Shown here one piece after another: positions 24,599-55,209 of a stretch of 55,209 nt of DNA. The notes under the pieces were generated by a model, which searched no databases, had not been told where the DNA came from, and saw only the letters and a program-made list of their open reading frames with translations. The stretch is from a virus (lineage: Duplodnaviria; Caudoviricetes): the IMG/VR virus record IMGVR_UViG_3300049846_001695, positions 1 through 55,209 of that record. One strand, written 5' to 3'. A program made the translations under genes and the position numbers. Every line of letters starts with the position of its first letter. Position 1 is the stretch's first letter.

Positions 24599-26566
24599 AT
24601 GAGCAATAAAGGTAAAGTATTTTTCGTAGATTCTAATTTGGATCAGGAAAAATTAGAAAAATCAGAACAGAACGATGGGTGGTTTACGGAAAATCCATTG
24701 GCTAAGTCTTTAATTGCCTCGCTAAGAGGCAAGCAGAAGGCGCAAGCCATAGCCTTTTCTGAAGATCCGCAGGAAAGTAGGTATCATAGTCTATACATAG
24801 ACAAAAACAACACTCCTTTATTGCCCGACACCATCATAAAAAGAACGTCATATATTGACGATCTTATTGCAGCGATCGTAAGAGGTCGCGCAAACCACAT
24901 TTCTTCGTTTGGTACAATGTTACCAGATAGAAAGTCTATGGGATATCGTCTTGACCCGGAGAAAAATAGTAACTTTGACAAATTGCCGTTCGAAAAGAAG
25001 GCAGAGCTAATCAAGGAATCTATACGAGTTTCTAAGCTTCTCGCATCATGCGGGAATCTAGAGGGGTTAGATGATAGACAAAAACAAACCTTCTCAGAAT
25101 TTTTGTATGTATCGGCAGCTAACGCTGTTAGATTCGGCAGAATCACCACAGAACTAATTAAAGATTCTGGCGGCAAGTTCTGTGGGTTTAGAGCAGTAGA
25201 CCCAAGCACCATTTATTTTGCTAGAAAAAACTCAACAAGCACGAGTGCAAAGGTACTAAGAGAGCAAGCGTTTAAGCTTTTGCAGGAAATAAAGAAAGAA
25301 ACTGTTATAGATCCGCAAAAGTACGCTAACGATGAGTATGCGTTTATTCAGGTAATTAATGGAACGCCCCGTCACGCCTTCACGGATGACGAAATGGTTA
25401 ACTTCAATTTCTACCCTACAACAGACTTTGAAACAAACCATTATCCCATTACACCAATAGACACAGTTATCAATGCTATCATAACTCACGTCAATATTAC
25501 TCAGCACAACAAGCTGTACTTCCAGTCTGGTAGAGCAACCAGAGGAATGCTTGTTATCCAATCCGAATCGGTTAACGACTCTACGTTAGAGCAGCTAAAA
25601 CAACAGTTTCAGGCATCTATTAATGGAGTCCAAAACTCTTGGAGAGTGCCGGTAATTAGCGTAGGAACCAACGACAAGGTATCTTGGCAGTCCATTGACG
25701 GTCAGGGTCGTGATATGGAATTCCAGTATTTGTTCGACTCAAATATTAGAATCATCCTCGCCGCGTTCAATATGTCTCCCGACGAATTGCCGGGATATAA
25801 CCACTTAAGCAAGGGCACAAACAATCAGTCGTTGTCAGAAAGCAACAACGAGTATAAGCTACAGGCGGCAAGAGATGTTGGCATTAGACCACTACTCTCG
25901 ACAATGGAAACATTCATTAACTTGAAGCTTATTCCATTGTTTAATCCAGAACTTTCAAGGTACTTTAAATTCAAGTTTTACGGCTTAGACGCCGAAACCC
26001 CAGAGAAGGAAGCCTCTAGAATTGAGGCGGAACAAAAGCTATGGGGCACAATGAACGACACACTAAGAAGTGTCGAAAAGGAAGAAATCCCAGCCCACCT
26101 TGGCGGCGATTTTCCATTGAATCCAGTATATCAAGCGGTAATCTTTCAGTGTCTAACAATGGGAGAAATACTGGAGCACTTCTTTAAGAAAGAGGGGGCA
26201 TCCAAGGATAAGAGATGGGATTATGTTAGAGACAACTTCTACTTCCAGCATATTTCCATGATTCAGCAGCAGGAGATGGCACAACAACAGCAGCAAATGG
26301 CGCAGCAGGCAGCGGCTCAACAAGCTCAAGGGCAGCCGCAGCAGGGGCAAGAGGGACAACAACAGCAGCAACAGGGCGCTCCCCAGCAACAGCAACCGCA
26401 GGGCGACCCAGATGCCCAGAAGCTCCAGACGGGTATTGACCAGCTTATAAATACTTTGTCAAAAAGTGAAGCATTCAAATCTTCTGTTAGGGCGCAGCAA
26501 GAAAGAATAGTGGAGTCAATTTTAGAAGAATTCGAAAAAGGATTAGATGACTTGATCAAGGATTAA
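24599..26566 (+). CDS. portal protein
   Basis: AVDPSTI, FQSG..TRGML, MEFQ, AAFNMSPDEL, GIRPLL, NDTLR; position after TerL; Q-rich tail. Confidence 0.88.
   Translation: MSNKGKVFFVDSNLDQEKLEKSEQNDGWFTENPLAKSLIASLRGKQKAQAIAFSEDPQESRYHSLYIDKNNTPLLPDTIIKRTSYIDDLIAAIVRGRANHISSFGTMLPDRKSMGYRLDPEKNSNFDKLPFEKKAELIKESIRVSKLLASCGNLEGLDDRQKQTFSEFLYVSAANAVRFGRITTELIKDSGGKFCGFRAVDPSTIYFARKNSTSTSAKVLREQAFKLLQEIKKETVIDPQKYANDEYAFIQVINGTPRHAFTDDEMVNFNFYPTTDFETNHYPITPIDTVINAIITHVNITQHNKLYFQSGRATRGMLVIQSESVNDSTLEQLKQQFQASINGVQNSWRVPVISVGTNDKVSWQSIDGQGRDMEFQYLFDSNIRIILAAFNMSPDELPGYNHLSKGTNNQSLSESNNEYKLQAARDVGIRPLLSTMETFINLKLIPLFNPELSRYFKFKFYGLDAETPEKEASRIEAEQKLWGTMNDTLRSVEKEEIPAHLGGDFPLNPVYQAVIFQCLTMGEILEHFFKKEGASKDKRWDYVRDNFYFQHISMIQQQEMAQQQQQMAQQAAAQQAQGQPQQGQEGQQQQQQGAPQQQQPQGDPDAQKLQTGIDQLINTLSKSEAFKSSVRAQQERIVESILEEFEKGLDDLIKD
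26262..26405 (+). repeat. low-complexity CAG/CAA (poly-Gln) tract in the portal C-terminus
   Basis: IQQQEMAQQQQQMAQQAAAQQAQGQPQQGQEGQQQQQQGAPQQQQPQG. Confidence 0.85.
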
Positions 26567-27244
26567 ATGTTTAAAGTTTCTAGAAAAATAAAGAATGCAA
26601 TCTCCGAAAAGATTTCTTCCCTAGTTGATTCAATCAAGAAGAAGTTGTCTGACGGAGACTTGTCTTTAAAGAGGCTGTATTTAAATTCCGCGAAGGAAGA
26701 GGGATCTTTTTATCCAGACCTTAACTCATTTCAGGTCTTGGTAGACGCCACGATGAATTACTTGGATGGGTTTAAAACAAAAACAACCAACGAAATCCTA
26801 AATAACGTGGAATCTAGTAAGAACGTTAAGGAAACTCTAACAAACGACTTCGCCAAGGCATCCCGTAATCTTGAAACAATAATCAGTACGCAAACCCAGT
26901 CAGTCAAGAATCTCGGTGCCCTAAATGGCATTTTCAATATAAGCACCATAAAGGGCATCGAAGACCCCGTAATATATTTTGCGGGGCCAAACGACAACGT
27001 AACGTGTTCTATTTGCAAGAAGCTATATTTCACAGATGCGGGAGTGCCCCGAGTATGGAAGGTTTCTGAGCTAAAAACATCGTTTTTTAACCATAAACAC
27101 GATAATGTTCCAAGCATTCACTCCGCTCACCCGAATTGCAGACATACTCCGACTCTGGTATTGCCGGGATACGGATTTAGCGAAACGGGAAGACTTGTTT
27201 GGATTTCAGAGAAACACTCTGAGCTTAAAAAACAAAGAGGGTAA
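26567..27244 (+). CDS. MuF/SPP1 gp7-like head morphogenesis protein
   Basis: D.VTCSIC and HPNCRH motifs; directly after the portal. Confidence 0.8.
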   Translation: MFKVSRKIKNAISEKISSLVDSIKKKLSDGDLSLKRLYLNSAKEEGSFYPDLNSFQVLVDATMNYLDGFKTKTTNEILNNVESSKNVKETLTNDFAKASRNLETIISTQTQSVKNLGALNGIFNISTIKGIEDPVIYFAGPNDNVTCSICKKLYFTDAGVPRVWKVSELKTSFFNHKHDNVPSIHSAHPNCRHTPTLVLPGYGFSETGRLVWISEKHSELKKQRG

Positions 27245-27250
27245 TTCAAA

Positions 27251-29269
27251 ATGAAGGAATTGCACCCCAAAATAGAAGAAGTTCTCAAATTTCCAAGCCA
27301 CGGCACCGTTATTGACGGGGTTTTTGCGTCAGAAGCTATTGATACATCTGGAGAAATGATTGACATTAAGGAGATGGACATAACAAGTCTTAATGACGGA
27401 TCTGGTGTGGCAAATACCGAGCACATCAATCCAGAAGATAAGCAGTTCAAGGAAGCGAAGGCGGAAGATGCTGGTCAATGGGCGGTCATTGTTGGGCGCG
27501 TTATTTTTGCGAAAAAAATATTCTCAGAAGATGATTGCACTAGTGAGCGCGAACTGGCGTTCTGGAATGAAGTTAAGCTACCGTTCATATATGGAGCCGT
27601 AGAATTATTTGATTCAGATGGGCATCACAACGCTCAAGAGCTTGCGGCTACAATCTGGCACTATCACAAGAGAAAGCTACCCGTCGTAGCGCGTTATAGC
27701 ATTGAAGGATCTACGGTAGATAGAGATGGGCACATTTTAAGACCCACGATTGCCCGCCGCGTAGCTATTACTATTAAGCCATGTAATCAGGCTGCCGCGT
27801 CTTCTTTGGTTGAGAGAACAAACGTTCCTCCAAAGCATTTTAAGAAAGACAAAGAGCTTTCAAAGATTGAACAAATTGGTACATTTGAAACGGAATCGTT
27901 CCCGCTAGTATTTAGCTCTACAACCGACGATCTATTTGGCGCAGTATCCGATTTGAAAAAAGCCTTTGAGCTTGGCGGTGGCGATGTTGCCCCATCCGCA
28001 AGGACTGGAATGGCGGCATTGGCCTCCGAAACTACGCCAGAACACCAAGAGAAAAAGAGAAAGAAAAACGAGCTTAAGTATAGGCTTATGGCTGCCATGA
28101 GAGATTGGAATAGAATGACTCCAATCAAAGAACACCTTAAGCACGAACTAAGGGATGTACATGACTCCTTTATCGACAAATTCTCGGAAATGGCGGAAGA
28201 AATAGTTCTTTCCAAGAAAGAGGTTGAATATAAGGGTAATATGGTCAGACCGGGCGAAGCAATGATTCTTGCCGGTCCATTCGCGGGGTCTTCGCTGCCA
28301 ATCCTTCATCTTGATGAAAAGCACGCGCACGTTCAGTCATTTAAGTCCGGTGGTCAAGAGGCGGCAATAATCAATAAGTTATCTACTGCCACACTAGGTT
28401 CACATTGGGCAATAATTACTCACCCGAAGCTTTCTAGCAAACCCAATTTGCCGGAAGACGTTAAGGATTTAAATAGACTCCCCGCTCAGACACTTCTGCT
28501 ATATCACCTAGACCTAAATAACAAAATCGTAACAAAGACTTCTACGCACGGGGATGACGGTGCTGGCTGGTATTTGAATGGTATGTCAAAGCACGTCTTT
28601 GCAAAACCAGAAATAGAATCAGTACACGATGATGTAAAGAATCTATCTACCGCACAAAGAGAGGTAATTTTCTATCTCGCATCTGAAGAGTTTTTTGGAC
28701 TCGGGCGCTCCGTTCCAGTTACGGCACTCGTAAAAAATACGAAGACTGAGAAACTAATGTCAGTTATAGAAAAATTTGACGGCTCTCATTTCTTCTCAAG
28801 TCGTCCAGACGCTACTGGAGTAAGGACCGTAAAGCAGGCTGGTAATTCTGGAATTCTCGAGAAAATGGCAATAATGGATGTCATTATGGGGAATTGTGAC
28901 AGAACCAAGCTGAACTACATGGTTAACGGCGAACAAGTCGCCCTTATCGACAATTCATTTATATTCAATTTCAGAGATGAAATAATCCCAGCGTACATTT
29001 TGGACTACGCCCACCTGATTGGTCGCAAGCTATCTGAAATTTTGTTAAAGCAAGAAACGATAGACTGGCTTGGATCGTTAGACGCATTCAAGCTGAAAGA
29101 ATATTTAGAGTCGCTTGGGGTTCCAGAGGAATTTGCTACAGAGTCGTCAAAAAGACTTCTAAGTATGCAAAGCTGTCTATTCAAAACCAAGCTGGATCTT
29201 AATAGTATATTAATGTCCCATTTCTCTTTTGTTAATCCGGTGAAGCCAAATGAAGAAGCAAATATATAA
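27251..29269 (+). CDS. prohead protease fused to a C-terminal PI3/4-kinase/HipA-like domain
   Basis: N-terminus: IDGVFASEAIDTSGE, NTEH, YSIEG, VAITIKPCN (HK97-type protease). C-terminus: FAKP, REV, MDVIMGNCDRT..N, LIDNSF. Confidence 0.8.
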   Translation: MKELHPKIEEVLKFPSHGTVIDGVFASEAIDTSGEMIDIKEMDITSLNDGSGVANTEHINPEDKQFKEAKAEDAGQWAVIVGRVIFAKKIFSEDDCTSERELAFWNEVKLPFIYGAVELFDSDGHHNAQELAATIWHYHKRKLPVVARYSIEGSTVDRDGHILRPTIARRVAITIKPCNQAAASSLVERTNVPPKHFKKDKELSKIEQIGTFETESFPLVFSSTTDDLFGAVSDLKKAFELGGGDVAPSARTGMAALASETTPEHQEKKRKKNELKYRLMAAMRDWNRMTPIKEHLKHELRDVHDSFIDKFSEMAEEIVLSKKEVEYKGNMVRPGEAMILAGPFAGSSLPILHLDEKHAHVQSFKSGGQEAAIINKLSTATLGSHWAIITHPKLSSKPNLPEDVKDLNRLPAQTLLLYHLDLNNKIVTKTSTHGDDGAGWYLNGMSKHVFAKPEIESVHDDVKNLSTAQREVIFYLASEEFFGLGRSVPVTALVKNTKTEKLMSVIEKFDGSHFFSSRPDATGVRTVKQAGNSGILEKMAIMDVIMGNCDRTKLNYMVNGEQVALIDNSFIFNFRDEIIPAYILDYAHLIGRKLSEILLKQETIDWLGSLDAFKLKEYLESLGVPEEFATESSKRLLSMQSCLFKTKLDLNSILMSHFSFVNPVKPNEEANI

Positions 29270-29705
29270 AGGAGTTTTTAAGGTTTACGATAGAAAAACC
29301 GGATCTGTCCATGATAGGCTTTTAGCAAGATTTTCTTGTGACGGAGGAGAATTTAAGATCCTAGAAGACCACTTGGGTATTTTTGAGGACTCATTGCCAG
29401 AAGGCGAGATGACAGATCTTCACTTTAAGTTTTTGGACTCAATTAGGACATCACCGTATCTTCGTCTTTTGTCTGAGGAACAAATAAATAGCGGCGAACA
29501 CGATGATATGATAGACGATCTTGATATAATGGCGCAGCCAAAGCACGAGTTTTTGCTTTACGACGAAAAAACAAATGAAGAACCAATCAAGGTTCACGTT
29601 TTTGATAGTAACTGGGTCGTAAACGGGAAACAACTTCTACCTCACGAGAAAGATCTTTTAATTAAAAGAGTTCAGGGTGGCGAACTAACCATTCACAACA
29701 TATGA
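29250..29705 (+). CDS. hypothetical protein (C-terminus similar to 41810..42037)
   Basis: 151-aa ORF overlapping both neighbours. Confidence 0.7.
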   Translation: MKKQIYKGVFKVYDRKTGSVHDRLLARFSCDGGEFKILEDHLGIFEDSLPEGEMTDLHFKFLDSIRTSPYLRLLSEEQINSGEHDDMIDDLDIMAQPKHEFLLYDEKTNEEPIKVHVFDSNWVVNGKQLLPHEKDLLIKRVQGGELTIHNI

Positions 29706-30379
29706 AAAACTTAGAACAAATTTACGCAATGGATAGGTCTTTAAAGGAGGCACTATCCGACTTAAAGAAGGCCGATAAGACTGCCGCAAAAAAGATTGCA
29801 AAGCATCTTTTTACGGACACACTCTGCCCTTGGGTCGGGAATAGGGCTGCCTATAACGATTTTCTATCTAGACACAAATATCATGGATTCCATGTTTCTG
29901 TAGATTTGAACAGTTTTTCTGAAATAAACAACAGGTATGGACACTTGGTAGGAGATGATGCAATAAAGATCTTTTTCAAGATATCTAGTGAAATCTCTAG
30001 AATGTTAAAGGGCAAGAACTTCAGAGTTGGCGGTGACGAAAATCGCCTGTTCTTTAACGACAAGGCAACCGCAGAAAAATATTCTCAAGAACTTAAAGCA
30101 AGACTATCTAAGGAAAAGGTCAGAGATTTTCAACTGTCCGCATCCGTTGGTATTGGATATACTCCAGAACATGCCGAGGCTGCATTAAAGAAAGCCAAGG
30201 AACAGCTAGGAACAGAAGTCCAGTACGAAAAGGTACGAAACTTTAGGTCTGGCGAGGAGCCCACCGTAATTGTAACTCTTCTTAACGAAAGTCCACCAGC
30301 AAGCTGGTCCCCGGTTGTTGAGAAAGTTTCAAACGACGATAAGAAGGGAATGCTTAAGATAGACAATCCTTTAACTTAA
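29702..30379 (+). CDS. GGDEF-domain protein (diguanylate cyclase-like)
   Basis: TDTL...GNRAA, VDLNSFSEINNRYGHLVGD, FRVGGDEN, SASVGIG. Confidence 0.85.
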   Translation: MKNLEQIYAMDRSLKEALSDLKKADKTAAKKIAKHLFTDTLCPWVGNRAAYNDFLSRHKYHGFHVSVDLNSFSEINNRYGHLVGDDAIKIFFKISSEISRMLKGKNFRVGGDENRLFFNDKATAEKYSQELKARLSKEKVRDFQLSASVGIGYTPEHAEAALKKAKEQLGTEVQYEKVRNFRSGEEPTVIVTLLNESPPASWSPVVEKVSNDDKKGMLKIDNPLT

Positions 30380-30671
30380 GGCACTGTTTACATACCCCCT
30401 TTCTACCATAGAATGCCATGAGCAATAGCGGCTCGTGGCATTTTTTGCATTTTTTGATACCAACTCCCATAAGACACTTCTTGCACCAGTGTTCTCCCTG
30501 CCCCTCCCTTATTCCACAGTTTTTGCACTTATTCCGTAGAAGAAAGTTATTTCTAAGCTCTCTTTGTTTCTTACGGCACTCCTTACAGTAGAAGCTCCTG
30601 CCACGGGAATTTGAGGATTTATGGAAATTGCTTTCTGGTAATAGAAGTTCACAATCAGAGCATTTAATCAT
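30354..30671 (-). CDS. Cys-rich zinc-finger protein
   Basis: Six CxxC pairs in 105 aa; antisense to the head operon. Confidence 0.65.
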   Translation of the reverse strand: MIKCSDCELLLPESNFHKSSNSRGRSFYCKECRKKQRELRNNFLLRNKCKNCGIREGQGEHWCKKCLMGVGIKKCKKCHEPLLLMAFYGRKGVCKQCLKLKDCLS

Positions 30672-33667: not shown

Positions 33668-33690
33668 TCAATAACTAAATAATTGATTAA

Positions 33691-33723
33691 GAGCCGCCGC
33701 GAGTTATCTCGCGGCGGTTTTTT
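33691..33723 (+). terminator. rho-independent terminator after the MCP
   Basis: CCGCCGCGAG-ttat-CTCGCGGCGG 10-bp stem followed by TTTTTT. Confidence 0.9.
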
Positions 33724-33754: not shown

Positions 33755-33761
33755 GGGCTAC

Positions 33762-36403: not shown

Positions 36404-36423
36404 AAAATCTCAATCTATAGGAT

Positions 36424-42037: not shown

Positions 42038-42040
42038 CCT

Positions 42041-45000: not shown

Positions 45001-47608
45001 AAAGGCAATTGAAGTTCCCGAAGCACTTTCGTATACCAATAGAAAGGAGTTTAGAGTCAATGAAGCTTCGTTAGCTCTAGTAAAGCGAATTTATGATCAG
45101 CTAGAGAAAACTCCAGAATTGGTATCAAACGATGTAATTTTCAACAATTTACGCGCCGCATTCAGTGGCCTCGATTTTACAGACTTCCCATTCCATAGGC
45201 TTTTTAGCGTTCCGGGCGGCTCCCGCCGCACGAGGCCCGAGTTGGGCTCGAAGGAAGAGTTTGTAAAATTGGGGACTAGATTCGCTGGCGTCGATTTTTT
45301 GAAGAATGTATTAAGGACAGAAGATGACTACGAAGTTTCGACTCTCCCATATCACATTTTTGAGCCATATCTTCCGCAATTAAAAAGCCTTGTAGATGAA
45401 ACTAAATTCTTCCCGTCTGAGGGGTGGTCGGCTTCATCTTTGGCTGGGCTAAACAACCTGCTTTCAATAATGAATAAAGAGGTTTATAACAAGAAAGAAA
45501 GTAGCGTTTTTTCTTACGATTTCCTTGATTACGCAATAAATAAGATGGCTATAGATGTAGTTGGAGAAAGCCATGAACACTACATTGAAAATAAGGATAC
45601 TTTGATAGTAAATCCAAAAAATATCCACAATGTATTGTCTCGCCTTTTTGTTAAAAAATATCTTCGCCCAGAATCTTCATTTGATTCGCTACCAAAACAG
45701 CCGGATGTCAGAAGGCTTGTTGCAGCCTCAATGTTTGAAAACTTTGATTCTCTTCAGATTGAAAGCTTTTGCTCAGACGGGGAAGAAAATAAAGCAAAGG
45801 TAGGGGAGGTACTATCCTCTCTCTTAGATGAAAACGGTGAAATAAACTTTAGCAATTTAGATGTAGAAAGATTTATAAAAAATCGCGTATATAGATACTA
45901 CAACAGTTTCCTGTCTGGGCTGATTAGTTCTGTATATGCCGATGCCCCGGCTGAAAAAGTAGACAAGGCGTTTGACACTCTTTTTAGAGAGAGCAGGCAT
46001 GACATGAGTTCATTTATGACTGATTTCTCTACTGATTCATCAAAATACCACAGCGCGTTTTTGAGGTTCGCTGGCAAATTCTTGAATACTTTCTTTACGG
46101 ATGACAAAGCTCTTGAGTTAAATATAAGATCGTTTGAGGACGCAGCCGGTACTCTTATCCGTCGCATGTTTGAAAGCGATGGTCATTTTCAAACGTATGC
46201 CGATGAAATTTACTACAATTCTCCTAAAACGCTTATAGATCAATTAAACCATCAGTTTGCCGGTCTGTTTGATGGGGGCGGAGAAATTGACCCATTAAAG
46301 AAAGCCAGAAGAACTGCCATTAAGAGCGCCTTTATTGAAATTTTCAATAAACAGAAAGGGCATTTTAATGCTTATTTAGATGAAATGCAGAAAGCCCTTA
46401 TTGAGATTTCTAAGAAAACCAAGATACCATTCGGTATTTTTAACGATTTGTCTTCAAAAGACTTTGAAGATTTAGAATCAGAAGAAACAAAGAATATCAT
46501 AAAGGATTACCTTAAGTTTCAAGAGGGGCTCATTTCGTCTATTAAAACCATTGGTGAAATTAAACAACTACATCCATCTATCATTCTCAAGAATCTGCAC
46601 CTTTTTGGATTACACGATTTTAGTGAGTTCTTACAGGACGCTAGTAACACAAATTTGAAATCCAAGATCGATCCAAACCTTCTGAAGTTTGATTATTTGG
46701 ACCCCGACAAAGCCAGCGACTATAACCTAATAATTCCTCTTGCTTCAACTTATGGTAATTGGCTTTCCGAAGTAGAGAAAAGTGATTTACCTCGCGCAAA
46801 CAAAATGAGGTACGGTGTCAAGCAGATTAGGCTTATCTGGGACGGGTTTTATCAAGCTTATACCCAAAAAGTTAAGCCTTCTCACTTCGCTAAGGTCAAA
46901 AGTGCGTTTATGACAAACGATGCTCCAGTGTCGTTTGCTCATAGAAACAAAGTTCAGCCATCTACAGATCAAAGGTTTGATGGGGAATATATGAGATTCT
47001 TGACAAAGGTTTCTCAAGAGGTTTTAAGGAAGTTTATTGAAACCGAGTCTTATAAGAAACATTGGCCAGATTTTAACGAAAAAAGAATACAGCGAGATGC
47101 TAACGGAGAGCTTGTTTTTATATTAAACCGAGGTGTTTCTGGAGATTTTGCGTACCAGCTTTTGCAGAGTATGGGACATATAAGTCAAACCGGAGATCTA
47201 CTTGATCACAAAGATATAGAGGGTAACTTGGTTACGGTGTCTGAACTTCCGTTCTCTAGTTACGCTCACAGTTTTGGTGCTTCAGCGCCCTTCGCCAACA
47301 GAAGAGATATGAGAAGGGCCGATGGATCTAGGCAGCATATGTCTGGGGTTGTGTTTTCTCAAAAAATCCCAATAAGCAGGATTTTGTTATGCGAGGTTTT
47401 GGGGCTTGGACCGGGGTTTTCTCATACGCACATTACTGAAAGAGAATGGCTCATCCTAAACCCACTAGAGCAGCTAGTGCTTAAACCAGAGGACGTTATG
47501 TCTTATTCTTTGAATGGAACCGTAAAATTCAATGAAAAACACGATCTATTCAATGAGACTCAACGCGGAGGCCACCTATATGGCGGCGAGCTTGGTGGAG
47601 AAGATTAA
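42041..47608 (+). CDS. giant protein (1855 aa) with putative C-terminal ADP-ribosyltransferase domain
   Basis: C-terminal LNRG...FSSY...EREW (R-S-ExE order); the rest is predicted mostly helical and unassigned. Confidence 0.65.
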   Translation: MPDNKQTPPAEPAEFLPQSVPTEDDVQTQSLKTLFGSTEGEPAPIEQPPVYDEILTSIPKPSVLAKKLEKFKDSNKRLLIRLGQNSNVDSVTENGSNSPSGMLDSHRTRYKNIDYDFSDFHLHPKSSKFLHDFLDNSVSHHELFLKPKTLDSFEKIVDFKLKVKDKDLESTYDPVYDKEAFQQYSYNLADFFEAADKNSPLHNLVEKEIAPKKLFFNSQNRNAVIDFVNKSSHPSFLAASIFHKNVGGLNRYAKSLNVDWPEVFEHMFFTKELDKDYYEYTSYDNQIDDFLKDNPQAEEDIKQASNFDVNEDSTSLQKTLYVLQNIDGDKFQNILSKKKELRSLFTDNEVGEFYASPRRLIIEKFSSQNPVDDEQHIVDANALIQTGIMPIFNLVRAVGALTERGPVQYVIGPLDDKVITDHFLDPNYNSGSLSDGIYVNGFLLSRLHDQNKPAFIDLMNSPEVGSNSVFEALSRTIGIAGDHGYYGYKTYPLERKQAFDLFDTSINHLGKDQLRRLVYFSHIPSTVRFITNKNAETKPMTVEENKSNTENTLVKMAEANPSVFLKGDNNVYGELEHRGMPDVGSRVYQRILSMPPDQLFHNPMFEFSPGSVGANMLDYIDVLEQRKIATLPRQHIDFLVKKATEVEVPQDAFPSEILSAIVRILETSATLKNFDSEAHGHPLVNKALQAFDEIHHRSSISLALSDFYKSLSEPAMKQFKEPVDKFLEGFMGRMLDGIIKDAAANNFYTPDRAPHQNKPFAGNPVLSAKYYDALVQKYLEHDNLGPPDSQIQKYISAATMSSYGQAYSDDIVLNAEKSTAPDLFLFQKTPVMRIPSQLAVFSDNAKASVVKFLLSKKNKNVIWRISANDVSSHQQFVKKNVIFPALGAKFFEPIFENYTSAFPTVEEQLRSIGYVSEAMETPPKEISVGGAGNISKRFLIELMNKFPESKITVSDWNAQFHSEININDENDSVSFEDLTRIFRANPPKAIEVPEALSYTNRKEFRVNEASLALVKRIYDQLEKTPELVSNDVIFNNLRAAFSGLDFTDFPFHRLFSVPGGSRRTRPELGSKEEFVKLGTRFAGVDFLKNVLRTEDDYEVSTLPYHIFEPYLPQLKSLVDETKFFPSEGWSASSLAGLNNLLSIMNKEVYNKKESSVFSYDFLDYAINKMAIDVVGESHEHYIENKDTLIVNPKNIHNVLSRLFVKKYLRPESSFDSLPKQPDVRRLVAASMFENFDSLQIESFCSDGEENKAKVGEVLSSLLDENGEINFSNLDVERFIKNRVYRYYNSFLSGLISSVYADAPAEKVDKAFDTLFRESRHDMSSFMTDFSTDSSKYHSAFLRFAGKFLNTFFTDDKALELNIRSFEDAAGTLIRRMFESDGHFQTYADEIYYNSPKTLIDQLNHQFAGLFDGGGEIDPLKKARRTAIKSAFIEIFNKQKGHFNAYLDEMQKALIEISKKTKIPFGIFNDLSSKDFEDLESEETKNIIKDYLKFQEGLISSIKTIGEIKQLHPSIILKNLHLFGLHDFSEFLQDASNTNLKSKIDPNLLKFDYLDPDKASDYNLIIPLASTYGNWLSEVEKSDLPRANKMRYGVKQIRLIWDGFYQAYTQKVKPSHFAKVKSAFMTNDAPVSFAHRNKVQPSTDQRFDGEYMRFLTKVSQEVLRKFIETESYKKHWPDFNEKRIQRDANGELVFILNRGVSGDFAYQLLQSMGHISQTGDLLDHKDIEGNLVTVSELPFSSYAHSFGASAPFANRRDMRRADGSRQHMSGVVFSQKIPISRILLCEVLGLGPGFSHTHITEREWLILNPLEQLVLKPEDVMSYSLNGTVKFNEKHDLFNETQRGGHLYGGELGGED

Positions 47609-48867
47609 TGTTTTCTGAGATTTTTGATAAAGTTGAGAAAAAGTACGGGTTTAAGGCTAGACACAATCTGGCTGTAAATATGTACAACGCAATTCCTCAA
47701 CAATTTAAGCACGTTGTTGAAGACTTTGGACAAACACAGAAAACAGACCCCCGCTTTTGGCATGAATCGCGCTTAAACGCAATCCATTCATATCTAACAG
47801 ACCCATCTGTTCAGAAGAAGTTTCATTACGCTAAGGGACACATTTCTCAGCAGGAGCTTGAAACGCCGGAAGATAGGCCAACAAACGTTACTCATGTTTC
47901 GTATCTGGAAAACATGGGTAAGGCAATGCATTTTTTGCACTCATTGTCTACCAAGATAGACCCTAAATGGCTTAAGGGGCCGGTTCTACATAAGACGGAA
48001 GAAGAGTTTAGCGTTTCGGTAGATGACGCTATTAACATCTATTATTCTATTGGGGAATATGCTGAAAAATACTCCCCGGAGTTTGAGGCCGCACAGGTCT
48101 TGGCAGATGGGTATATTCCTTCCGACGATGAGGTTTTAGATGCTGTCAAGCAACACGAGGGCGACCTCGTTTCTATAGCTCTTATGGCCCACGGTCTTGA
48201 AGTAAATAGCGAAAACAAAGAAAAGCTAAAGGAGATGTGCGTTCTCAAGAAAACCACCCACTTTAAGGGCTTTCAGAAATTGGGGGTAGAAAATAGAAGA
48301 GAAACTCCGATCGTTGGTGGACAAGCCCTAGAGAATAAAAAGAAACTTCTAGTTGCTGGGGTAGAAAGAGAGCTAGGGCAGAAAGTCCCTCCCAAGGTTA
48401 AGCAGTCCGCAATGAAACAGAAATTCGGCGCTTCTTCTAGAAACCCCAATATTGCGGTTTCCTATGTTTCTGCAACCCCTCCTCAAACAACCGCAGGTAA
48501 AGATCCTAAAACGGTTATAGCCACAAAGGAGCACGAGGATTTTCATCAAACTTTAAGGATGGTTTCTAGAAAATACGGGCCGGAAGTTAAAAACGACATT
48601 TTAAACAAGATATGGGACACAATGCCAAAAGAAGGCAGAGATGCGCTATCTATATTCCTATCATCTAGAGTCGGAGTTAATGTAAAAACTCCAGAACAGG
48701 CCAAAGAAGAAGCAATGGCGTATGTTTTTAACTACCTCAATTCCCCCGGCGAAAGACAGTCGTTCCACAAACTGCACGGTCACAAAGATCCGAGGTTTAA
48801 CCTCAAGATGAAAATGGCTTTTAGGCATATACAAGAAGTCGCCAATAAGATAAAATTGAGAGGATAA
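47608..48867 (+). CDS. multidomain protein with C-terminal zincin-like metallopeptidase motif
   Basis: HEDFH followed downstream by EEAMA. Confidence 0.6.
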   Translation: MFSEIFDKVEKKYGFKARHNLAVNMYNAIPQQFKHVVEDFGQTQKTDPRFWHESRLNAIHSYLTDPSVQKKFHYAKGHISQQELETPEDRPTNVTHVSYLENMGKAMHFLHSLSTKIDPKWLKGPVLHKTEEEFSVSVDDAINIYYSIGEYAEKYSPEFEAAQVLADGYIPSDDEVLDAVKQHEGDLVSIALMAHGLEVNSENKEKLKEMCVLKKTTHFKGFQKLGVENRRETPIVGGQALENKKKLLVAGVERELGQKVPPKVKQSAMKQKFGASSRNPNIAVSYVSATPPQTTAGKDPKTVIATKEHEDFHQTLRMVSRKYGPEVKNDILNKIWDTMPKEGRDALSIFLSSRVGVNVKTPEQAKEEAMAYVFNYLNSPGERQSFHKLHGHKDPRFNLKMKMAFRHIQEVANKIKLRG

Positions 48868-48868
48868 G

Positions 48869-50626
48869 ATGGAACCACTTCAAAAAATGGCGGTAAGAGA
48901 TATTGCTCATGGGGAAAGACTCCCCAACGGAGATTTCTCTTATACAAAGGCCCTACCGGAGCATTTACAGTCAGAATATGATCTAGTTGTGGCTCAGTTT
49001 CAGGGCTCGCGTGGAGCCCAGCTAGGCGATCAAGCATCCTCTCTGGGCGCGTATATATACCATAAAAAAACCAACTCTGAAATCGGAAGAGTAGGCATGG
49101 GATTGGACCGTGGCGAAGGTGAGATAATTTCTGCGTCCGTAGACAAAGACCATACAGGCAAGGGGCTTGGAACCGCAGCGTATGAGGCGTTAATTGCCCA
49201 CGGTCGCAGATTTCATGGATTAAAGAGAGTTGTCGGCAGTTCGCACAGTTCAATGGCCCATGGGACGCATACTAAATTAATGCAAAAACACCCCGAGTGG
49301 GAGGGGTACGAGCCAGTTAAAATTGGCGAAGAAAAAGGACCGTTTGATGATGCTTGGGGTGATTACGAATACACCATTAAGGCAGAGTTAATGAAAAAAG
49401 AGGACTTGAGCAAGGCTCAAGATCCAAAGGGATTCCACGAAATTCTCAAACTATCAACTCCGCTTGGCGACAAATACGTTGACCACAAACCAGACTTGTC
49501 TGCTCACCCACCTAGTATTCATAGCGAAGTACATGCCTATAGAAATGATATTCAGGCAAGCCCCGGCAACTTCAAAAGCAAGAGAGTTCGCGGCGAAGGC
49601 GTTGGCATTTCGCAAAAGAATATTTTTACGCATCCAACTGGCACGAAATTCATGGTTAAACCATACCATGAAAGAGTTATCAAGCGCGTTAAAAATTGGC
49701 AGCAGTTTCCAATTCAGGGCTGGGCAGAAATGACCAACCAATCCCTATACCACTCCGCTGATATCGGGCACTTACATCAAAAGGTTCATGTTTCTGAGCA
49801 TAATATGCAAAGGAATGACTCTACAGATGCTACAAGCTCCAGAAGTTTAGCTACTCGCCAGAATCAACGACGGGGCGGCACAAATGAGCCAGCCCTCGTA
49901 ATCCATATGGAGCCAAATCTTTGGAGCCTTAGTGATGTACTTAGAGGCAAATTTGATTTAAATAGCGAACCAGTTCACAAAGACATTCATGTAGATGATC
50001 TTTTTAACATGCCGGAATATAAAGATCCAAACCTTGAGTGGAGAGGTGACTGGCGCACAACTCCAACTGGTCCCGCTCAGTATTACAAAGCGTTTAGAAA
50101 GCAGACTGTAACTCCTAAAAAGGAAGATCTTCAAAAAATAGCCGTTATGGATTTTTTGAGCAATAATCTAGACAGGCATTACGGCAATCTGATGTTTAGA
50201 GAGGACGGGACTCCATTAGCAATCGACCATTCTCGTAGTTTCCAGTATGCAAATACTCACGAAACCAAGGGTTTTCCACGTCACCATGTTGCTTCACTAC
50301 CAATGGACAAGAAGGTAGATTCTATATCGCATTATATAGAAAAAGCTCCAGCAATGTATCAGGTTTTGTATGGCAAAAACCCATCTACAGAGTGGGAAAA
50401 TACAATTAACAATTGGTGGCCTACGGTATCCAAAAAAGTTGTCCAGACAATGCAGGCACGCCTACAGCAGATCAAAGATCCAAACGTCAGGAAGCACATT
50501 GAAAATAATTTCATGGCTAGAGTTAAGCACTTGGATGAAATGGCTAGTCTAGATGTGAATAATTTTGGACAATTCGATTGGCACGAAACTCCGGTGCCAC
50601 ACTATTCTTTCGGTGAGAATCCATGA
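48869..50626 (+). CDS. GNAT acetyltransferase + PI3/4-kinase/HipA-like fusion
   Basis: HTGKGLGTAAYE; FMVKP, WAE, MDFLSNNLDRHYGN, AIDHS. Confidence 0.8.
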   Translation: MEPLQKMAVRDIAHGERLPNGDFSYTKALPEHLQSEYDLVVAQFQGSRGAQLGDQASSLGAYIYHKKTNSEIGRVGMGLDRGEGEIISASVDKDHTGKGLGTAAYEALIAHGRRFHGLKRVVGSSHSSMAHGTHTKLMQKHPEWEGYEPVKIGEEKGPFDDAWGDYEYTIKAELMKKEDLSKAQDPKGFHEILKLSTPLGDKYVDHKPDLSAHPPSIHSEVHAYRNDIQASPGNFKSKRVRGEGVGISQKNIFTHPTGTKFMVKPYHERVIKRVKNWQQFPIQGWAEMTNQSLYHSADIGHLHQKVHVSEHNMQRNDSTDATSSRSLATRQNQRRGGTNEPALVIHMEPNLWSLSDVLRGKFDLNSEPVHKDIHVDDLFNMPEYKDPNLEWRGDWRTTPTGPAQYYKAFRKQTVTPKKEDLQKIAVMDFLSNNLDRHYGNLMFREDGTPLAIDHSRSFQYANTHETKGFPRHHVASLPMDKKVDSISHYIEKAPAMYQVLYGKNPSTEWENTINNWWPTVSKKVVQTMQARLQQIKDPNVRKHIENNFMARVKHLDEMASLDVNNFGQFDWHETPVPHYSFGENP

Positions 50627-51684
50627 AAATAGAGATTTACAATCATGCCACAGGCCGCAGCGAGCACATGCGCGGTGACGAGCATCAAATTTTGGAATGG
50701 ATATCAAAAACACTTCCTTGGCTAAATGTTCGCAAAGGGGAATTGCTCGATGATGTTCTTGAGGACATAAATCAAAACCAAAATTTTGAAGCAATTGTTT
50801 CTGGAGAAACGGATTTAACAAAGAACGATGGTCGTATTGTTATAGAACCATTCACAGATCTCGACAAGGCTGGTGCAGCATTGGCTCAGAGAGCCCTTCA
50901 AAAGAATTCTATAAAGCCAATTAAGCTCAAGGGCAAGCATACTGCCGGGACTTCTTTGTTTTTGGATGAAATCAACCATATCGTATGGCTACTAAAGCCG
51001 GGTCGCGGCGGGATATCAAAGGCTCGTGGCGTTTCTGAAGAAAATGCATCTGGATCGAGGCGCGAAGTCGCGTTTAACGCAATAGCGTCAAAAATAGGTC
51101 TTTCAAACTTCGTCCCTCAGTCATACCTGTTAGAAGTTTCTGGTGAAGAAGTAGCTATGCTTCAGTTCTTTGCAGATGACTTCGATAATCTAAATCATGT
51201 ACGCAGAGAGCGCACTCCAGATTCCATTTTTCAGCCATATGTAAGCAACGGGGTACTGCACAGAATAGCTTTCCTAGACTACCTTTTAGGACAGACAGAT
51301 CGTCATGCAGGGAACGTTCTCGTAAATAAACATACTGGAGAATTTAAGCTAATTGACGCCGGGTCGGCATTTGCTGGCCCCAGCTTCTCTCCAACAACAG
51401 ATAGTCGCTCATTTATTCCCGTCTATTTGAGGGGGGTGACTTCTAACGAGTTTTCAGTATTAACTCCACAAGAAAGATACCAAAGAATGCCAAAACCCTC
51501 ATTATCGGGGCAGGAAGGCTTAAAAGTCTGGGTGCAAAACTTGCCCGAAGGAGTGATTATCAATCTATTAAATAAATACGGAATAAATCCACAGCCCGTA
51601 ATGGACAGGCTACAAAGGGTAAGGGACTATAGTGGTCCGGTACACGAGTTTTTGAATAAGTTCTGGTCTGGTGTTATTTTATGA
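50623..51684 (+). CDS. PI3/4-kinase/HipA-like kinase
   Basis: WLLKP, RREVA, LDYLLGQTDRHAGN, LIDAG. Confidence 0.8.
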   Translation: MKIEIYNHATGRSEHMRGDEHQILEWISKTLPWLNVRKGELLDDVLEDINQNQNFEAIVSGETDLTKNDGRIVIEPFTDLDKAGAALAQRALQKNSIKPIKLKGKHTAGTSLFLDEINHIVWLLKPGRGGISKARGVSEENASGSRREVAFNAIASKIGLSNFVPQSYLLEVSGEEVAMLQFFADDFDNLNHVRRERTPDSIFQPYVSNGVLHRIAFLDYLLGQTDRHAGNVLVNKHTGEFKLIDAGSAFAGPSFSPTTDSRSFIPVYLRGVTSNEFSVLTPQERYQRMPKPSLSGQEGLKVWVQNLPEGVIINLLNKYGINPQPVMDRLQRVRDYSGPVHEFLNKFWSGVIL

Positions 51685-51986
51685 AGATTTCTAGAGAGCA
51701 GTTAAGAGGCGACCCCAAAAAGATAGGCAAGACCAAGAGCGGAGATGTTTTTCACATCTCTACCAAGGGCGGTTTTAACATAATCATGTTAAAGGGGGAG
51801 AAGGAAACAAAAATGCTAGGTGCCGCCCCGCACATTGCTATTGCAAAGCATATAGCAAAGAAGAATGCCGAGGACTTGGTGTATTTTGAGCTATCGAAGG
51901 CAGATGAGCAAATAGACGTATTTTCACACCTTATTCCAGTTTTCGAACAAGTAACCAGAAGATTGGCGGAACAATTAAATGGCTAA
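51681..51986 (+). CDS. hypothetical protein
   Basis: 101 aa; contains ELSKAD. Confidence 0.7.
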   Translation: MKISREQLRGDPKKIGKTKSGDVFHISTKGGFNIIMLKGEKETKMLGAAPHIAIAKHIAKKNAEDLVYFELSKADEQIDVFSHLIPVFEQVTRRLAEQLNG

Positions 51987-53605: not shown

Positions 53606-53965
53606 ATGCTTTGGAGAGGAAGGAAAATAACCACGACTGATGACAGAGATGTCTTAGATCGTCTTTTTGCTAAGGTTTCTGGCAAGAACGGGAGTGTATC
53701 AAACAAAGAAACTGAAGATGTGGTATATAGCGGTTTTTTGAGGCAAAAGTTATTAGAGGGTGCAGCATTCCATACGGTCGCCGCCACCAAATGTAAAAAA
53801 ACCGACCCGGAAAAGCACTCTATCCACTGTGGAATATTGTCGCTTTATGCCCTAGCCGGGCTGAAGCTTGATTTTACCAAAGCCCAATCTTTAGTGAAGC
53901 CAGATGAAGATTTAAGTAAAAAATTTCATCCAAGCGATACTTTTGTTTTGTCATTAAGGGACTAA
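53606..53965 (+). CDS. hypothetical protein
   Basis: 119-aa ORF packed in the operon. Confidence 0.6.
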   Translation: MLWRGRKITTTDDRDVLDRLFAKVSGKNGSVSNKETEDVVYSGFLRQKLLEGAAFHTVAATKCKKTDPEKHSIHCGILSLYALAGLKLDFTKAQSLVKPDEDLSKKFHPSDTFVLSLRD

Positions 53966-53966
53966 C

Positions 53967-55209
53967 ATGCTATATATTTTTGCAAAAACAATAAATTTCG
54001 AAAATGATTTTGAGTATACCTTAATGTCAAACAATGAGGGGGCTGTAAAGTCCTTCTCAGCCGCCCCTCTTCAATTTGCTCACGAAATGACAAAGTGGGT
54101 AGAAAGCTCTGACAGGGGCAGGGTTATTACCAACCTATTTGGCGTTTTCGGAATGGTGATTAAAGACCCAATGCAGCTAGCCAATGTAAAGCAGCAGCTA
54201 GATAAGTGGGAACGAATAATCCCCATATCTGTTGGCGTAGCACCAAAAATCTTTGAGGCTTATCAGGCAATGGTCTTTGCTGAAGCCCACTCCATTCATT
54301 CGATTGTTTTTTATGATTCGAATGTCGAAGAGTATTTTAACAACAAGATGGAGGACGAGCTTTACAAGTCAGATGATGAAAACAATAACGCCCCGTCTTT
54401 TAGTTTACCGAATATTGAACTGGATGATGAAGAAAATGAAGATCAGCAGAAAACATCGGCAGCTTCTAAAAAGAAGATACTAGAGGTTTTGGTTGAGCTT
54501 AAGGAAAAGGCCCCAGCAATAGCACAATTAAAACAGGTAGACCCATCCGCCCTAAAGACTATAAATAAACTTGTAGAAGCTTTGGGGGCAATGGTTCAGT
54601 CTGGATTGGTAAAATCAGAACCTCTAGAAAAGGCTTGGCCCAAGGACGAAGCTGAAAACAAGGCCAACCGAGAAGGATTTTATACTCAACACCCTGAAAA
54701 AGCCGCTGTTGTAAGCGATATGGTAGAAGAGGGTATTCACGGTACTGAAGATACAACGCAATTAAAACAATTGCCGCGCACTCCCGGTATGCCAACTGAA
54801 GCTTATATTCCCTCGCCTCCCGGTGCAACAGATAGGTTTGAGCCTACAGATGAAGCTATGGCTCGTACTAGAGCCATTAGAAGTCCATTTGAAAGTCGAA
54901 ATACTCAGATAAATATGGAAGAAGCCGGAACGGAATCCGATTCGTTTATCCCGAGTATAGATTTTAATGAAAGTCGATTTGGAAAGCGATATTTCTTTAC
55001 TCCAGACCGTGAACGCCCAAATGGAATGTGGGTAGGTAGCTCAAATAGTGAGTGGACGGGGCATGGTCCGGTAAATGGTGCGTACTTTGACCCGTCTAAG
55101 GGTGAATTTAGTTACTACGAGGGCGATGATTGGACACCAGAAGAACTTAATTTCTTGCATCAACACATTGTAAAACACGCCCCACACCTATTCCCCGGCG
55201 ATCCTATCC
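53967..55209 (+). CDS. partial multidomain protein, N-terminal degenerate GGDEF/mCpol-like region (runs off the window end)
   Basis: Not in the ORF track. ATG at 53967, open to the end: MLYIFAKTINFEND...IPISVGVAPKIFEAYQAMVFAE...ELYKSDD...GLVKSEPLEKAWPK... Confidence 0.75.
   Translation, partial: MLYIFAKTINFENDFEYTLMSNNEGAVKSFSAAPLQFAHEMTKWVESSDRGRVITNLFGVFGMVIKDPMQLANVKQQLDKWERIIPISVGVAPKIFEAYQAMVFAEAHSIHSIVFYDSNVEEYFNNKMEDELYKSDDENNNAPSFSLPNIELDDEENEDQQKTSAASKKKILEVLVELKEKAPAIAQLKQVDPSALKTINKLVEALGAMVQSGLVKSEPLEKAWPKDEAENKANREGFYTQHPEKAAVVSDMVEEGIHGTEDTTQLKQLPRTPGMPTEAYIPSPPGATDRFEPTDEAMARTRAIRSPFESRNTQINMEEAGTESDSFIPSIDFNESRFGKRYFFTPDRERPNGMWVGSSNSEWTGHGPVNGAYFDPSKGEFSYYEGDDWTPEELNFLHQHIVKHAPHLFPGDPI

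Follow-up and report, generated by a model that had tools for sequence, protein, structure and literature searches.

A putative Lys-specific head-protease motif marks the capsid protein, the scaffold and the module joints of polyvalent enzyme proteins in an Mx1-like myovirus

Introduction

How would a phage protein that joins several enzymes in one chain be separated into its parts, and would this happen in the head? The question is raised by a 55,209-base viral fragment (IMG/VR record IMGVR_UViG_3300049846_001695; hereafter the window, about 34% of a complete genome by estimate), in which the tripeptide L-x-K followed by a small residue recurs in the portal, the scaffold and the major capsid protein (MCP) and again between the domains of large enzymatic proteins encoded downstream. 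A preliminary description of the window proposed that these enzymes are packaged as polyproteins, cut into free kinases, acetyltransferases, cyclase and muramidase by the head protease, and injected.

Proteins of this kind have been called polyvalent by Iyer, Burroughs, Anand, de Souza and Aravind (2017). They combine 2-15 unrelated enzyme domains and are encoded near packaging genes; their packing and injection were predicted, and processing by embedded peptidases was proposed (PMC5512222; this and the other papers cited are represented here by excerpts).

Comparison of the window with related phage sequences gives good support to the core of the proposal, namely that a motif used by a Lys-specific head protease would also mark the joints of the modular enzymes. 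The overall explanation, in which one such motif marks the MCP, the scaffold and the joints of polyvalent cargo, is the one that we favor with moderate confidence.

Results

The motif in capsid, scaffold and portal proteins

Judged by its MCP and gene order, the window derives from an Mx1-like myovirus, and the region from position 24599 onward is the head-assembly module of that phage. The best match of the MCP is to Myxococcus phage Mx1 (169.6 kb; 52.5% identity), followed by matches at 24-27% identity, mostly to Herelleviridae but also to some Bacteroides and Thermus phages. As in Mx1, the genes run in the order helicase, sigma factor, phosphoesterase, TerL, portal, "putative prohead protease", nucleotide cyclase, a scaffold-like gene and MCP; in Mx1, large "NUDIX hydrolase" and "kinase" proteins and then the sheath follow. 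By these comparisons the phage is a distant relative of the Twort-like phages (Herelleviridae) and not a member of that group. A profile of the MCP retrieved 114 related IMG/VR stretches, and the best 80 were used as the relatives' loci.

L-x-K-[A/T] stands at the same N-terminal column in all 73 unique MCPs of the relatives (81 sequences including that of the window, from alignments starting near the N-terminus). In the window, the predicted cut would remove a leader of 13 residues. HMMER aligned residues 9-18 of the window MCP (EELKKAFELG) to EDVVKSFQTG of PDB chain 5lii_P (463 residues), which we take to be the MCP of the staphylococcal phage 812, and PDB chain 9row_B (439 residues) is the 5lii sequence minus its first 24 residues, so that it starts at Ser25, directly after the aligned K24. 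The MCPs of phages A511 and K are cut at a K/S bond. L-x-K-A is also found at this place in SPO1 gp6.1 (9vel), SP-10, CP-51 and DAC19. The conservation and the Lys-Ser boundary both agree with the earlier assignment of the N-terminal LKKA as the maturation site. From residue 61 to the end, the 73 MCPs hold 3 sites, compared with 27.5±5.8 in shuffled sequences; such a depletion would be expected of a mature shell that has to withstand its own protease. A second conserved site, L-Q-K-[M/A/S/G] at residue 54, occurs in 45 of the 73 relatives; the window MCP lacks it and has LQKE there (32420-32431).

The scaffold of the window has six L-x-K-[S/A] sites (Table 1). Here and below, expected counts were derived from each protein's own composition. 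Among 38 unique scaffold orthologs, L.K[AS] occurs 169 times where 19.4 are expected (8.7-fold); the consensus is L-[ASKL]-K-[SA]-[ED], and the positions and numbers of the sites vary from ortholog to ortholog. A T4-type cut after Glu (L/I-x-E, by a homolog of gp21) was considered and rejected: the residue before the cut (P1) is Lys, and L.E[AS] is found in the scaffolds only 3 times against 22.4. The portal carries sites near both ends, and in 22 portal orthologs with alignments of at least 500 residues L.K[ASGM] is concentrated in the N-terminal ~70 residues (19 vs 3.8) and the C-terminal tail (10 vs 2.6), with 11 vs 10.1 in the core. These patterns suggest that the head protease very probably has its site at L-x-K before a small residue, and cleavage of the MCP and the scaffold there appears highly probable.

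Motifs at the joints of modular enzymes

The same motif stands between the modules of the 1008-residue protein at 38596..41622. An exhaustive search with this protein gave 1067 homologs at E<=1e-3, and the best 149, clustered at 50% identity (148,668 residues), were analyzed. They contain the five modules (N1, A, B, GNAT and kinase) in 35 distinct orders, and 118 of the 149 have at least two modules. Homology breakpoints accumulate at query residues 290-309, 470-509 and 630-689 and, in smaller numbers, at 80-99 and 240-249; these accumulations coincide with K96, K301, K488 and K678. The four sites, which had been said to separate five domains, thus lie at the homology breakpoints between five modules; K301 is nearly invariant among the homologs. 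Furthermore, gene boundaries in one phage are internal joints in another. Stand-alone B proteins start with M-x(3-15)-L-x-K-[G/N/S] and then a hydrophobic segment, which corresponds to the interior of the window protein at residues 293-320, and the N-terminus of the protein at 48869, MEPLQKMAVRDI (L-x-K-M-A-[IV]-x-D), matches internal B-to-GNAT joints in homologs.

Across the 149 homologs, L.K[ASGM] was counted 533 times against 230 expected; the corresponding figures are 580 and 601 for L.K followed by another residue, and 168 and 140 for the reversed motif. For the count by location, a module copy was used only if it came within 15 model positions of being complete at the edge in question, and gaps of 5-90 residues were taken as linkers. 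The 73 inter-module linkers contain 55 L.K[ASGM] sites, compared with 6.9±2.5 in within-linker shuffles, and at least one site is present in 53 of them. N-terminal leaders are similar (28 sites vs 5.7±2.3; 28 of 46 carry the motif), whereas the 239 module cores are depleted (28 vs 52.2±7.1). The resulting densities are 1.97 per 100 residues in linkers and 0.08 in cores, and in a plot by position the first 60 residues of the B and GNAT cores are free of the motif, with sharp peaks just outside. When the 119 linkers and leaders were scanned without presupposing a motif, L.x.K ranked first among 400 pairs (104 vs 39.6).

The motif is found at 18 of 31 joints from the N-terminus to B, 23 of 29 from B to GNAT, 15 of 17 from GNAT to GNAT, 10 of 15 from the N-terminus to GNAT, 8 of 10 from GNAT to B and 5 of 6 from B to kinase, and it precedes five module families in all (B, GNAT, kinase, GGDEF and the MCP N-arm described below). 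The sites that had been noticed before the GGDEF, GNAT and kinase modules of the window are conserved in free-standing and fused forms. Before GGDEF, the site is mostly L-x-K with A or M as the next residue, in many cases with D/E-P after that, and is present in most listed forms, whether the domain is free-standing (window, Mx1 and the relatives L004, L007 and L008) or the last module of a protease polyprotein of 1236-1639 residues. Similarly, [FLM]-x-K-[ASG] stands about 40 residues upstream of the kinase core in 6 of 8 aligned orthologs of the kinase at 50623 (7 from relatives, and that of L059), being absent in L004 and L059. Other enzymes of the relatives follow the same layout: six of their large polyproteins have 0 sites within Pfam-defined NUDIX, GNAT, ART or LRV domains, a site lies about 20 residues after the NUDIX domain in three of the proteins, and GNAT and ART are flanked by sites. 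In 24 large open reading frames (ORFs) downstream of the neck gene in relatives, 62 sites were found against 31.1±5.8, and L.K followed by another residue was found 99 times against 98.9.

The protease and its copy of the capsid N-arm

The gene order portal (24599), protease (27251), scaffold (31295) and MCP (32261) is the same in Mx1, SP-10 and CP-51. The head maturation protease family phrog_1028 is matched by 32 of 41 aligned orthologs of the protease domain (best E 8.7e-13), and the family profile also finds the protein that is annotated as head maturation protease in Bacillus phage SP-10 (hhalign 98.2%, E 3.3e-14); the profile gave nothing in Pfam or PDB, and in a tblastn search of the domain against phages Mx1 was the sole match. 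Judged by these profile matches, the domain is homologous to the head proteases of the Herelleviridae. H58 and S150 are invariant (in 41 and 40 aligned sequences, respectively) and are candidate catalytic residues.

Directly after the protease domain, the ORF repeats the start of the capsid protein. A copy of the phage's own MCP N-arm (the first ~30-40 residues, including L-x-K-A) was detected in 49 of 59 unique protease proteins at z>=4 relative to shuffles, with the consensus L-x-K-A-L-E-A-G-S-x-x-A-A-P...G-A-A-L...E-D-L, and K237, the Lys of this L-x-K-A, is nearly invariant. The protease would presumably cut itself at K237/A238; the piece so released would start like the mature MCP and could sit in the shell likewise. 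A hidden Markov model (HMM) of the N-arm matched MCPs (82), protease proteins (43) and one truncated protease ortholog, and nothing else in the loci, so the N-arm copy was rejected as a general targeting signal for all cargo.

What follows the N-arm copy varies. Among the 59 unique proteins the protease domain is fused to a kinase in 12 (including the window and Mx1), to a C-terminal GGDEF module in 7, to N1 in 2 and to a module of the 47608 type in 2 (relatives L051 and L056), and in one database homolog module B follows it. The kinase module of the window's protease ORF scores 21.8 bits in Pfam, under the cut-off, and is tied to the other kinase modules by jackhmmer. The C-terminal extensions of the protease proteins are rich in sites (147 vs 60.6±7.5), and the protease domain itself has 10 vs 16.8. 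Since module families of the cargo are fused to the prohead protease in relatives, these fusions argue that such modules are located in the prohead.

Motif counts in the window

All of the L-x-K motifs listed in the preliminary description were found where it had placed them, including MQKS at 40051. An excess in head-operon over replication proteins, which it had anticipated, is confined to the region from 24599 onward after correction for composition: the 26 ORFs there hold 37 L.K[ASMGT] motifs, where 17.62 are expected (Poisson p 3.8e-5), and the remaining 25 ORFs, DnaE, NrdJ and an SbcC-like protein among them, hold 16, where 17.30 are expected. The excess persists when the portal, scaffold and MCP are taken out (26 vs 15.19, p 0.007) and is also seen in the seven cargo proteins first named (18 vs 6.58, p 1.8e-4); the six-gene metabolic insert at 33753-37199 has 1 motif vs 1.92. 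With L.K[AS][ED], the form refined on the scaffold orthologs, the head region has 11 matches vs 1.26 and the rest of the window 0 vs 1.26. These window statistics carry the caveat that the motif was defined post hoc, from the very proteins counted. Because it was picked after the proteins of the window had been viewed, independent data were sought, and the decisive support is that of the related sequences.

The same pattern in other phages

In Mx1, the region from portal to presheath has 36 motifs vs 14.8 expected (p 2e-6), and 8 vs 0.9 of the refined form. Elsewhere in that genome the counts are 4 vs 4.1 for the early genes with TerL, 17 vs 16.4 for replication and metabolic genes, and 1 vs 4.2 for baseplate, fiber and lysin. 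Two complete relatives have 33 vs 19.6 and 31 vs 17.1 in the block from head to cargo, and 39 vs 35.7 and 53 vs 50.4 in the remainder. In one complete relative, G002, a protein of 487 residues (28553-30016, minus strand), encoded outside the mapped head block, contains LSKAE, LAKSE and LFKAD, and a neighboring ORF of 1146 residues (22018-25458) has one refined-motif site; both may be further head substrates encoded elsewhere.

The crowding of the motif extends to the Herelleviridae. In SP-10 and CP-51, [LIVM].K[ASGM] occurs 8 times vs 1.4 and 13 times vs 1.44 in the scaffolds, and 8 times vs 1.06 and 9 times vs 1.31 in the head proteases (positions 5500-6924 of the SP-10 stretch and 4327-5923 of the CP-51 stretch); their sheath, tube and neck proteins have 0-2 sites (0-1 in sheath and tube). 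In our literature searches no published description of this crowding was found. Since the Lys code would be shared with the Herelleviridae, it would be older than the Mx1-like group. Felix O1 was dropped as a comparison because its MCP is apparently uncut.

The cargo block and its surroundings

Coordinates of the features are collected in Table 1.

Table 1. Features of the head-assembly module and of the cargo block (positions in the window)
Feature	Position	Strand	Basis or remark
Portal protein, 655 residues	24599..26566	+	Pfam Phage_portal, phrog_12
Putative portal sites near both ends	LEKS 24653, LAKS 24698, LSKS(E) 26456	+	motif match
Prohead (head maturation) protease domain	27251..27946	+	residues 1-232 of 672-residue ORF 27251..29269
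LKKA site K237/A238, then MCP N-arm copy	27953..28030	+	eight residues LKKAFELG identical to MCP
PI3/PI4-kinase-like module, C-terminal end of protease ORF	28637..29269	+	Pfam PI3_PI4_kinase, residues 536-573
GGDEF-type nucleotide cyclase	29702..30379	+	Pfam GGDEF 43.2 bits (cut-off 23.8); NCBIfam GGDEF 38.7 (cut-off 37.4)
Cyclase leader, 23 residues, ending LKK/AD	site 29762	+	motif match
Scaffold protein, 316 residues	31295..32245	+	six L-x-K-[S/A] sites, 6 vs 0.79 expected
Putative scaffold sites	LAKS 31376, LSKA 31955, LSKS 31985 and 32072, LMKS 32156	+	motif match
Further putative scaffold site	LQKA 32132	+	motif match, not cited in the preliminary description
MCP	32261..33667	+	phrog_752; predicted cut K13/A14, LKKA at 32291
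Five-module polyvalent protein, 1008 residues	38596..41622	+	Pfam, PHROGs, homology breakpoints
Module N1	38596-38805	+	weak DUF5661
Module A	38869-39345	+	phrog_1106
Module B	39493-40035	+	hydrophobic Gly/Ala-rich segment and conserved domain without assigned fold
GNAT module of the 38596 protein	40108-40611	+	Pfam 22.1 bits (cut-off 20.7)
PI3/PI4-like kinase module of the 38596 protein	40798-41619	+	Pfam 37.8 bits (cut-off 27.1)
Junction sites of 38596..41622	LEKM 38875, LKKG 39490, MQKS 40051, LSKA 40621	+	K96, K301, K488, K678
1855-residue ORF in cargo block	42041..47608	+	membership in the system uncertain
419-residue protein	47608..48867	+	LHKT 47986, LKKT 48244
GNAT + PI3/PI4-like kinase protein	48869..50626	+	Acetyltransf_1 27.9 bits (cut-off 20.7), PI3_PI4_kinase 32.0 bits (cut-off 27.1)
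Putative sites of the 48869 protein	leader MEPLQK/MA 48878; LSKA 49406 after GNAT	+	motif match
Stand-alone PI3/PI4-like kinase	50623..51684	+	Pfam 30.5 bits (cut-off 27.1); LDK/A 50860 before kinase module
101-residue protein	51681..51986	+	conserved site at residue 71, LSKAD 51891
Truncated last ORF	53967..55208	+	LYKSD 54360, LVKSE 54606, LEKA 54624

The enzymes first listed are borne out by Pfam matches above cut-off for the kinases, acetyltransferases and cyclase (the last with a weaker mCpol match as well); the muramidase has no support from Pfam, PDB or names. In a profile of 27 kinase modules, K31 (ATP-binding), N137 and D151 (metal-binding) are invariant and D132 (catalytic loop) nearly so, with the consensus DRHxxN, and the profile matches the catalytic loops of PI3K, PI4K and PIKK in PDB at E 1e-4. 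A HipA-like kinase, suggested by an atlas lead (HipA_2), was not confirmed by Pfam and was set aside for the PI3K/PI4K/PIKK fit. Module B as a muramidase or lytic transglycosylase was rejected: no Pfam family was matched by the module at E<=1, six stand-alone B homologs gave only sub-threshold unrelated families (E 0.06-0.29), none of them lysozyme or SLT, and the B part of the profile had no PDB match, its source names all being "hypothetical protein". An E-S...G-x-L-G pattern in module B may resemble that of SLT enzymes. Directly after K301/G302 lies a moderately hydrophobic Gly/Ala/Val-rich segment (39502-39555, plus strand; residues 303-320), which is kept in stand-alone B homologs and would form the new N-terminus of module B if the site were cut.

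The remaining proteins are less readily classified. The 47608-type module, besides following the protease domain as above, is fused to a kinase in L004, where it makes up the N-terminal half. In the protein at 51681, the residue-71 site reads LSKSE in Mx1 and LEKSE in the relative G003. The last ORF (53967..55208) has 3 motifs vs 0.42 expected, two of which fit the refined form; no homologs of it were found among the relatives' loci, and it is a possible further substrate of the protease, to go by its motifs. The 1855-residue ORF gave no Pfam, PHROG or NCBIfam match and no atlas match at >=0.9; it also had no match in the Mx1 stretches (L002 and L003), where no gene of that size lies at the corresponding place.

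The polyvalent cargo block is inserted between two neck genes. It spans 38596-51986 and is flanked by neck-type genes, one like phrog_772/442 (37744) and one like phrog_1004 (51979). In SP-10 (8763-10254 of its stretch) and CP-51, genes with matching annotations ("tail fiber protein" and "virion structural protein") are adjacent. Because those genes, counterparts by annotation, adjoin there, the cargo block looks like an insertion hot spot.

Several other observations concern the surroundings. An insert of metabolic and small genes (33753-37199, plus strand) lies between the MCP and the neck genes; among its products are an IMPDH/GMP-reductase family protein (33753-34847) and a ThyX-like protein (35166-35990); a strong terminator-like hairpin (33689-33722) forms its upstream border, and a second hairpin lies after the cyclase gene (30410-30444). 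The TerL ORF (21168-23567, plus strand, 799 residues) aligns to the TerL of relatives only from about residue 344-368 and has a sub-threshold Intein_splicing match at residues 333-366 (28.7 bits; cut-off 35.8); an intein or other insertion within its ATPase part is probable. The minus strand of the window encodes DnaE, a B12-type ribonucleotide reductase, an SbcC-like ATPase and a GroEL-like chaperonin.

Discussion

In the mechanism that we propose, the head protease would cut after the Lys of [L>M/I/V/F]-x-K when A, S, G or M follows, in a preferred context with acidic residues usually at P4-P6 and often at P2'. Its substrates would be the MCP (K13/A14), the scaffold (degraded through cuts at six sites), the portal at both ends and its own C-terminal boundary at K237/A238. 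Among the cargo, it would cut leaders and linkers of the cyclase (29702), the five-module protein (38596), the GNAT-kinase protein (48869) and the kinase (50623), and probably also the proteins at 47608, 51681 and 53967. The cargo would first be built into the prohead and then be separated by the protease into single enzymes; for the kinase fused to the protease, incorporation would be certain via the covalent linkage, perhaps aided by the N-arm copy. The PI3/PI4-like kinases, GNAT acetyltransferases, nucleotide cyclase and module B, the last with a hydrophobic Gly/Ala-rich N-terminus, would thus be released, would stay in the head and would probably be delivered with the DNA. The parts of this scheme differ in strength. 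From the motif pattern we judge cleavage at the cargo joints to be probable, at a level below that of the MCP and scaffold, and a head location of the unfused cargo is likely to a similar degree. Injection is tentative, and we would sooner doubt it than assume it.

A number of observations weigh against the scheme. The present results have no direct bearing on injection. The N-arm copy is restricted to the protease, as far as the HMM matches go, so the unfused cargo is without a known targeting signal. The protease domain of the window taken alone has no Pfam, PHROG or PDB match. Two of the six motif matches in the 1008-residue protein fall inside the kinase fold (K770, the ATP-binding Lys, and K852), so the motif alone is not sufficient, and the 1855-residue ORF in the midst of the block is unenriched (4 vs 3.24 expected). 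Maps of the complete relatives at 10-kb resolution show an enrichment of only 1.7-1.8-fold, with a few bins outside the block at 1.8-2.1-fold. "Linker" rests on homology breakpoints only, and the joint motifs are often part of conserved module edges (e.g., L-x-K-M-A-I-K-D before GNAT), so the 53 linkers with a site are not 53 independent events, and the motif could have been inherited with the module for a structural reason. Finally, the literature that we searched yielded neither proteomic data nor a cleavage motif from Mx1 or from the Herelleviridae, phage 812 included, and no biochemical data on the phage group of the window; searches on the SPO1 capsid and on packaged kinases or acetyltransferases gave no such data either.

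The embedding of the motif in module edges bears on the possibility that it is a structural or recombinational linker element, such as a helix cap or splice point, which travels with the modules, so that the multi-enzyme proteins work uncut and only the MCP and scaffold are cleaved. That the motif lies within longer strings, such as L-x-K-M-A-I-K-D-I-x-P-G at GNAT and L-x-K-G plus the hydrophobic segment at B, and that the modules are shuffled into so many orders agree with this, as does the virion RNA polymerase of N4, which is packaged unprocessed (PMC5512222). A linker element would, however, hardly require the same tripeptide with a small P1' residue before unrelated modules whose contexts otherwise differ, nor would it have to equal the motif of the MCP and scaffold. 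Depletion in both the module cores and the MCP body, and the lack of any motif excess in baseplate, tail and replication proteins of comparable size, also speak for a protease site, and free-standing modules retain the motif as a short N-terminal leader, where a linker is not needed. We regard the linker element as not very likely. Chance is hardly credible as an explanation. The motif was indeed defined after reading the same proteins, and when the window by itself was scanned without presupposing a motif, L.x.K came 2nd among 400 i,i+2 pairs (92 vs 64.0), a rank that by itself would fail Bonferroni correction. But the pattern was reproduced in Mx1, in the 149 homologs, in the Herelleviridae and in the polyproteins of the relatives, by which chance is already contradicted.

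Two further alternatives concern the location and the fate of the proteins. Cell-wall-acting modules occur on the tails of many myoviruses, and the block lies between neck-type genes (37744 and 51979) that are adjacent in SP-10 and CP-51, so its products might be tail or neck proteins that never meet the prohead protease, with the enrichment as a by-product of composition or ancestry. This is very unlikely, given that in relatives these module families share one polypeptide chain with the prohead protease, that enrichment was measured against each protein's own composition and that true tail and baseplate proteins are without it. Alternatively, the proteins might be cut but their products not injected, acting instead in the producing cell or in the head, as core or inner body, as assembly factors or in the modification of virion proteins or DNA. 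The sequence is silent on ejection, no strong transmembrane segment was found in the cargo proteins (19-residue hydropathy window, threshold 1.6), and in T4 the core fragments mostly leave the head or just make room for DNA (PMC9026906). On the other side, kinase, GNAT, NUDIX, ART and cyclase are typical of the host-directed conflict domains found in polyvalent proteins, for which injection has been predicted (PMC5512222), and T4 Alt and internal proteins (PMC9026906) and DarB of phage P1 (PMC9024508) are precedents for delivery from myovirus heads. We consider this alternative unlikely.

The proposed scheme, cleavage at Lys sites in head and cargo proteins alike, resembles several known systems without coinciding with any. 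In T4, leaders of 7-65 residues end in a protease motif and are removed by the head protease gp21, the scaffold core is cut up, and Alt is packed, trimmed and ejected, the leader being a general loading route for varied proteins (PMC9026906). As with gp21, IPI-III and Alt, short N-terminal leaders here end in a head-protease motif (28 of the 46 leaders), and the system is T4-like in working but is not a member: P1 is Lys rather than the Glu of L/I-x-E, and T4 cargo consists of single proteins without internal joint sites, with a protease that is not fused to cargo. Phages phiKZ and SPN3US (gp175 and gp245) likewise use one motif in the capsid protein, portal, ejection proteins and the C-terminal piece of the protease, with several sites per propeptide; gp245 of SPN3US acts on head and ejection proteins and also cleaves off its own C-terminal piece. 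Their motif, however, is A-x-E, N-terminal propeptides are removed rather than enzymes separated, and 42 head proteins stay uncut, according to the excerpts (PMC10052503). In phage P1, DarB, a 250-kDa multi-domain enzyme, is loaded into the head by an N-terminal signal of at most 30 residues and is believed to enter the cell (PMC9024508); the excerpted text shows targeting by the leader but not its removal. DarA and DdrB are proteolytically processed (PMC9024508, PMC5512222). Phage P1 differs from the present case in that its MCP is cut after Glu120, and neither a shared junction motif nor cutting of DarB into modules is reported in the excerpts.

The closest likeness in content is to the polyvalent proteins: GNAT and PI3/PI4 kinase share one chain (38596 and 48869), NUDIX, ART and GGDEF occur in relatives (ART-PolyVal is matched in 3 of 37 of their proteins), and the block 38596-51986 lies inside the structural gene module. 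The excerpted text on polyvalent proteins names no cleavage motif and contains the word "linker" 0 times; it places assemblin-like peptidases "always at the C termini", whereas the protease is N-terminal here, and its kinase is a truncated Ser/Thr/Tyr kinase rather than PI3/PI4-like (PMC5512222). As far as these excerpts reach, the idea of a packed and delivered multi-enzyme arsenal is already published and the explicit Lys code at the joints is new. In ancestry, the nearest system is that of the Herelleviridae, to which the MCP, the protease and, more weakly, the scaffold are homologous (the window scaffold to that of SP-10 at hhalign 68%, E 4.6e-5), with a Lys cut at the aligned position and motif-crowded scaffolds and proteases. 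SP-10 and CP-51 differ in lacking a polyvalent cargo block, their two neck genes lying side by side, and in having as protease a plain protein of ~250 residues.

Beyond this phage, it is conceivable, though speculative, that in a very large and mostly uncultured phage group one Lys-protease "grammar" loads and frees combinatorial enzyme arsenals. Any module with a leader or linker of L-x-K and a small residue would then be head cargo, fusion and fission at the joints would be free, the protease would double as an N-arm-anchored carrier that releases a kinase or cyclase, and the N-terminus of module B would be primed to insert into a membrane when ejected, in the way that lytic peptides of some animal viruses are primed by maturation cleavage. 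Standard trypsin-based virion proteomics would be blind to these cuts, as trypsin, too, cuts after Lys; Myxococcus phage Mx1 offers a tractable model for the Lys cut-site code. If the scheme is true, leader and linker tags and the protease-fused carrier are candidate handles for loading proteins into Mx1-like and Herelleviridae capsids. The proposed processing of polyvalent proteins would become a concrete rule, a cut after the Lys of L-x-K before a small residue, and the mature products would be predictable from sequence in hundreds of uncultured phages.

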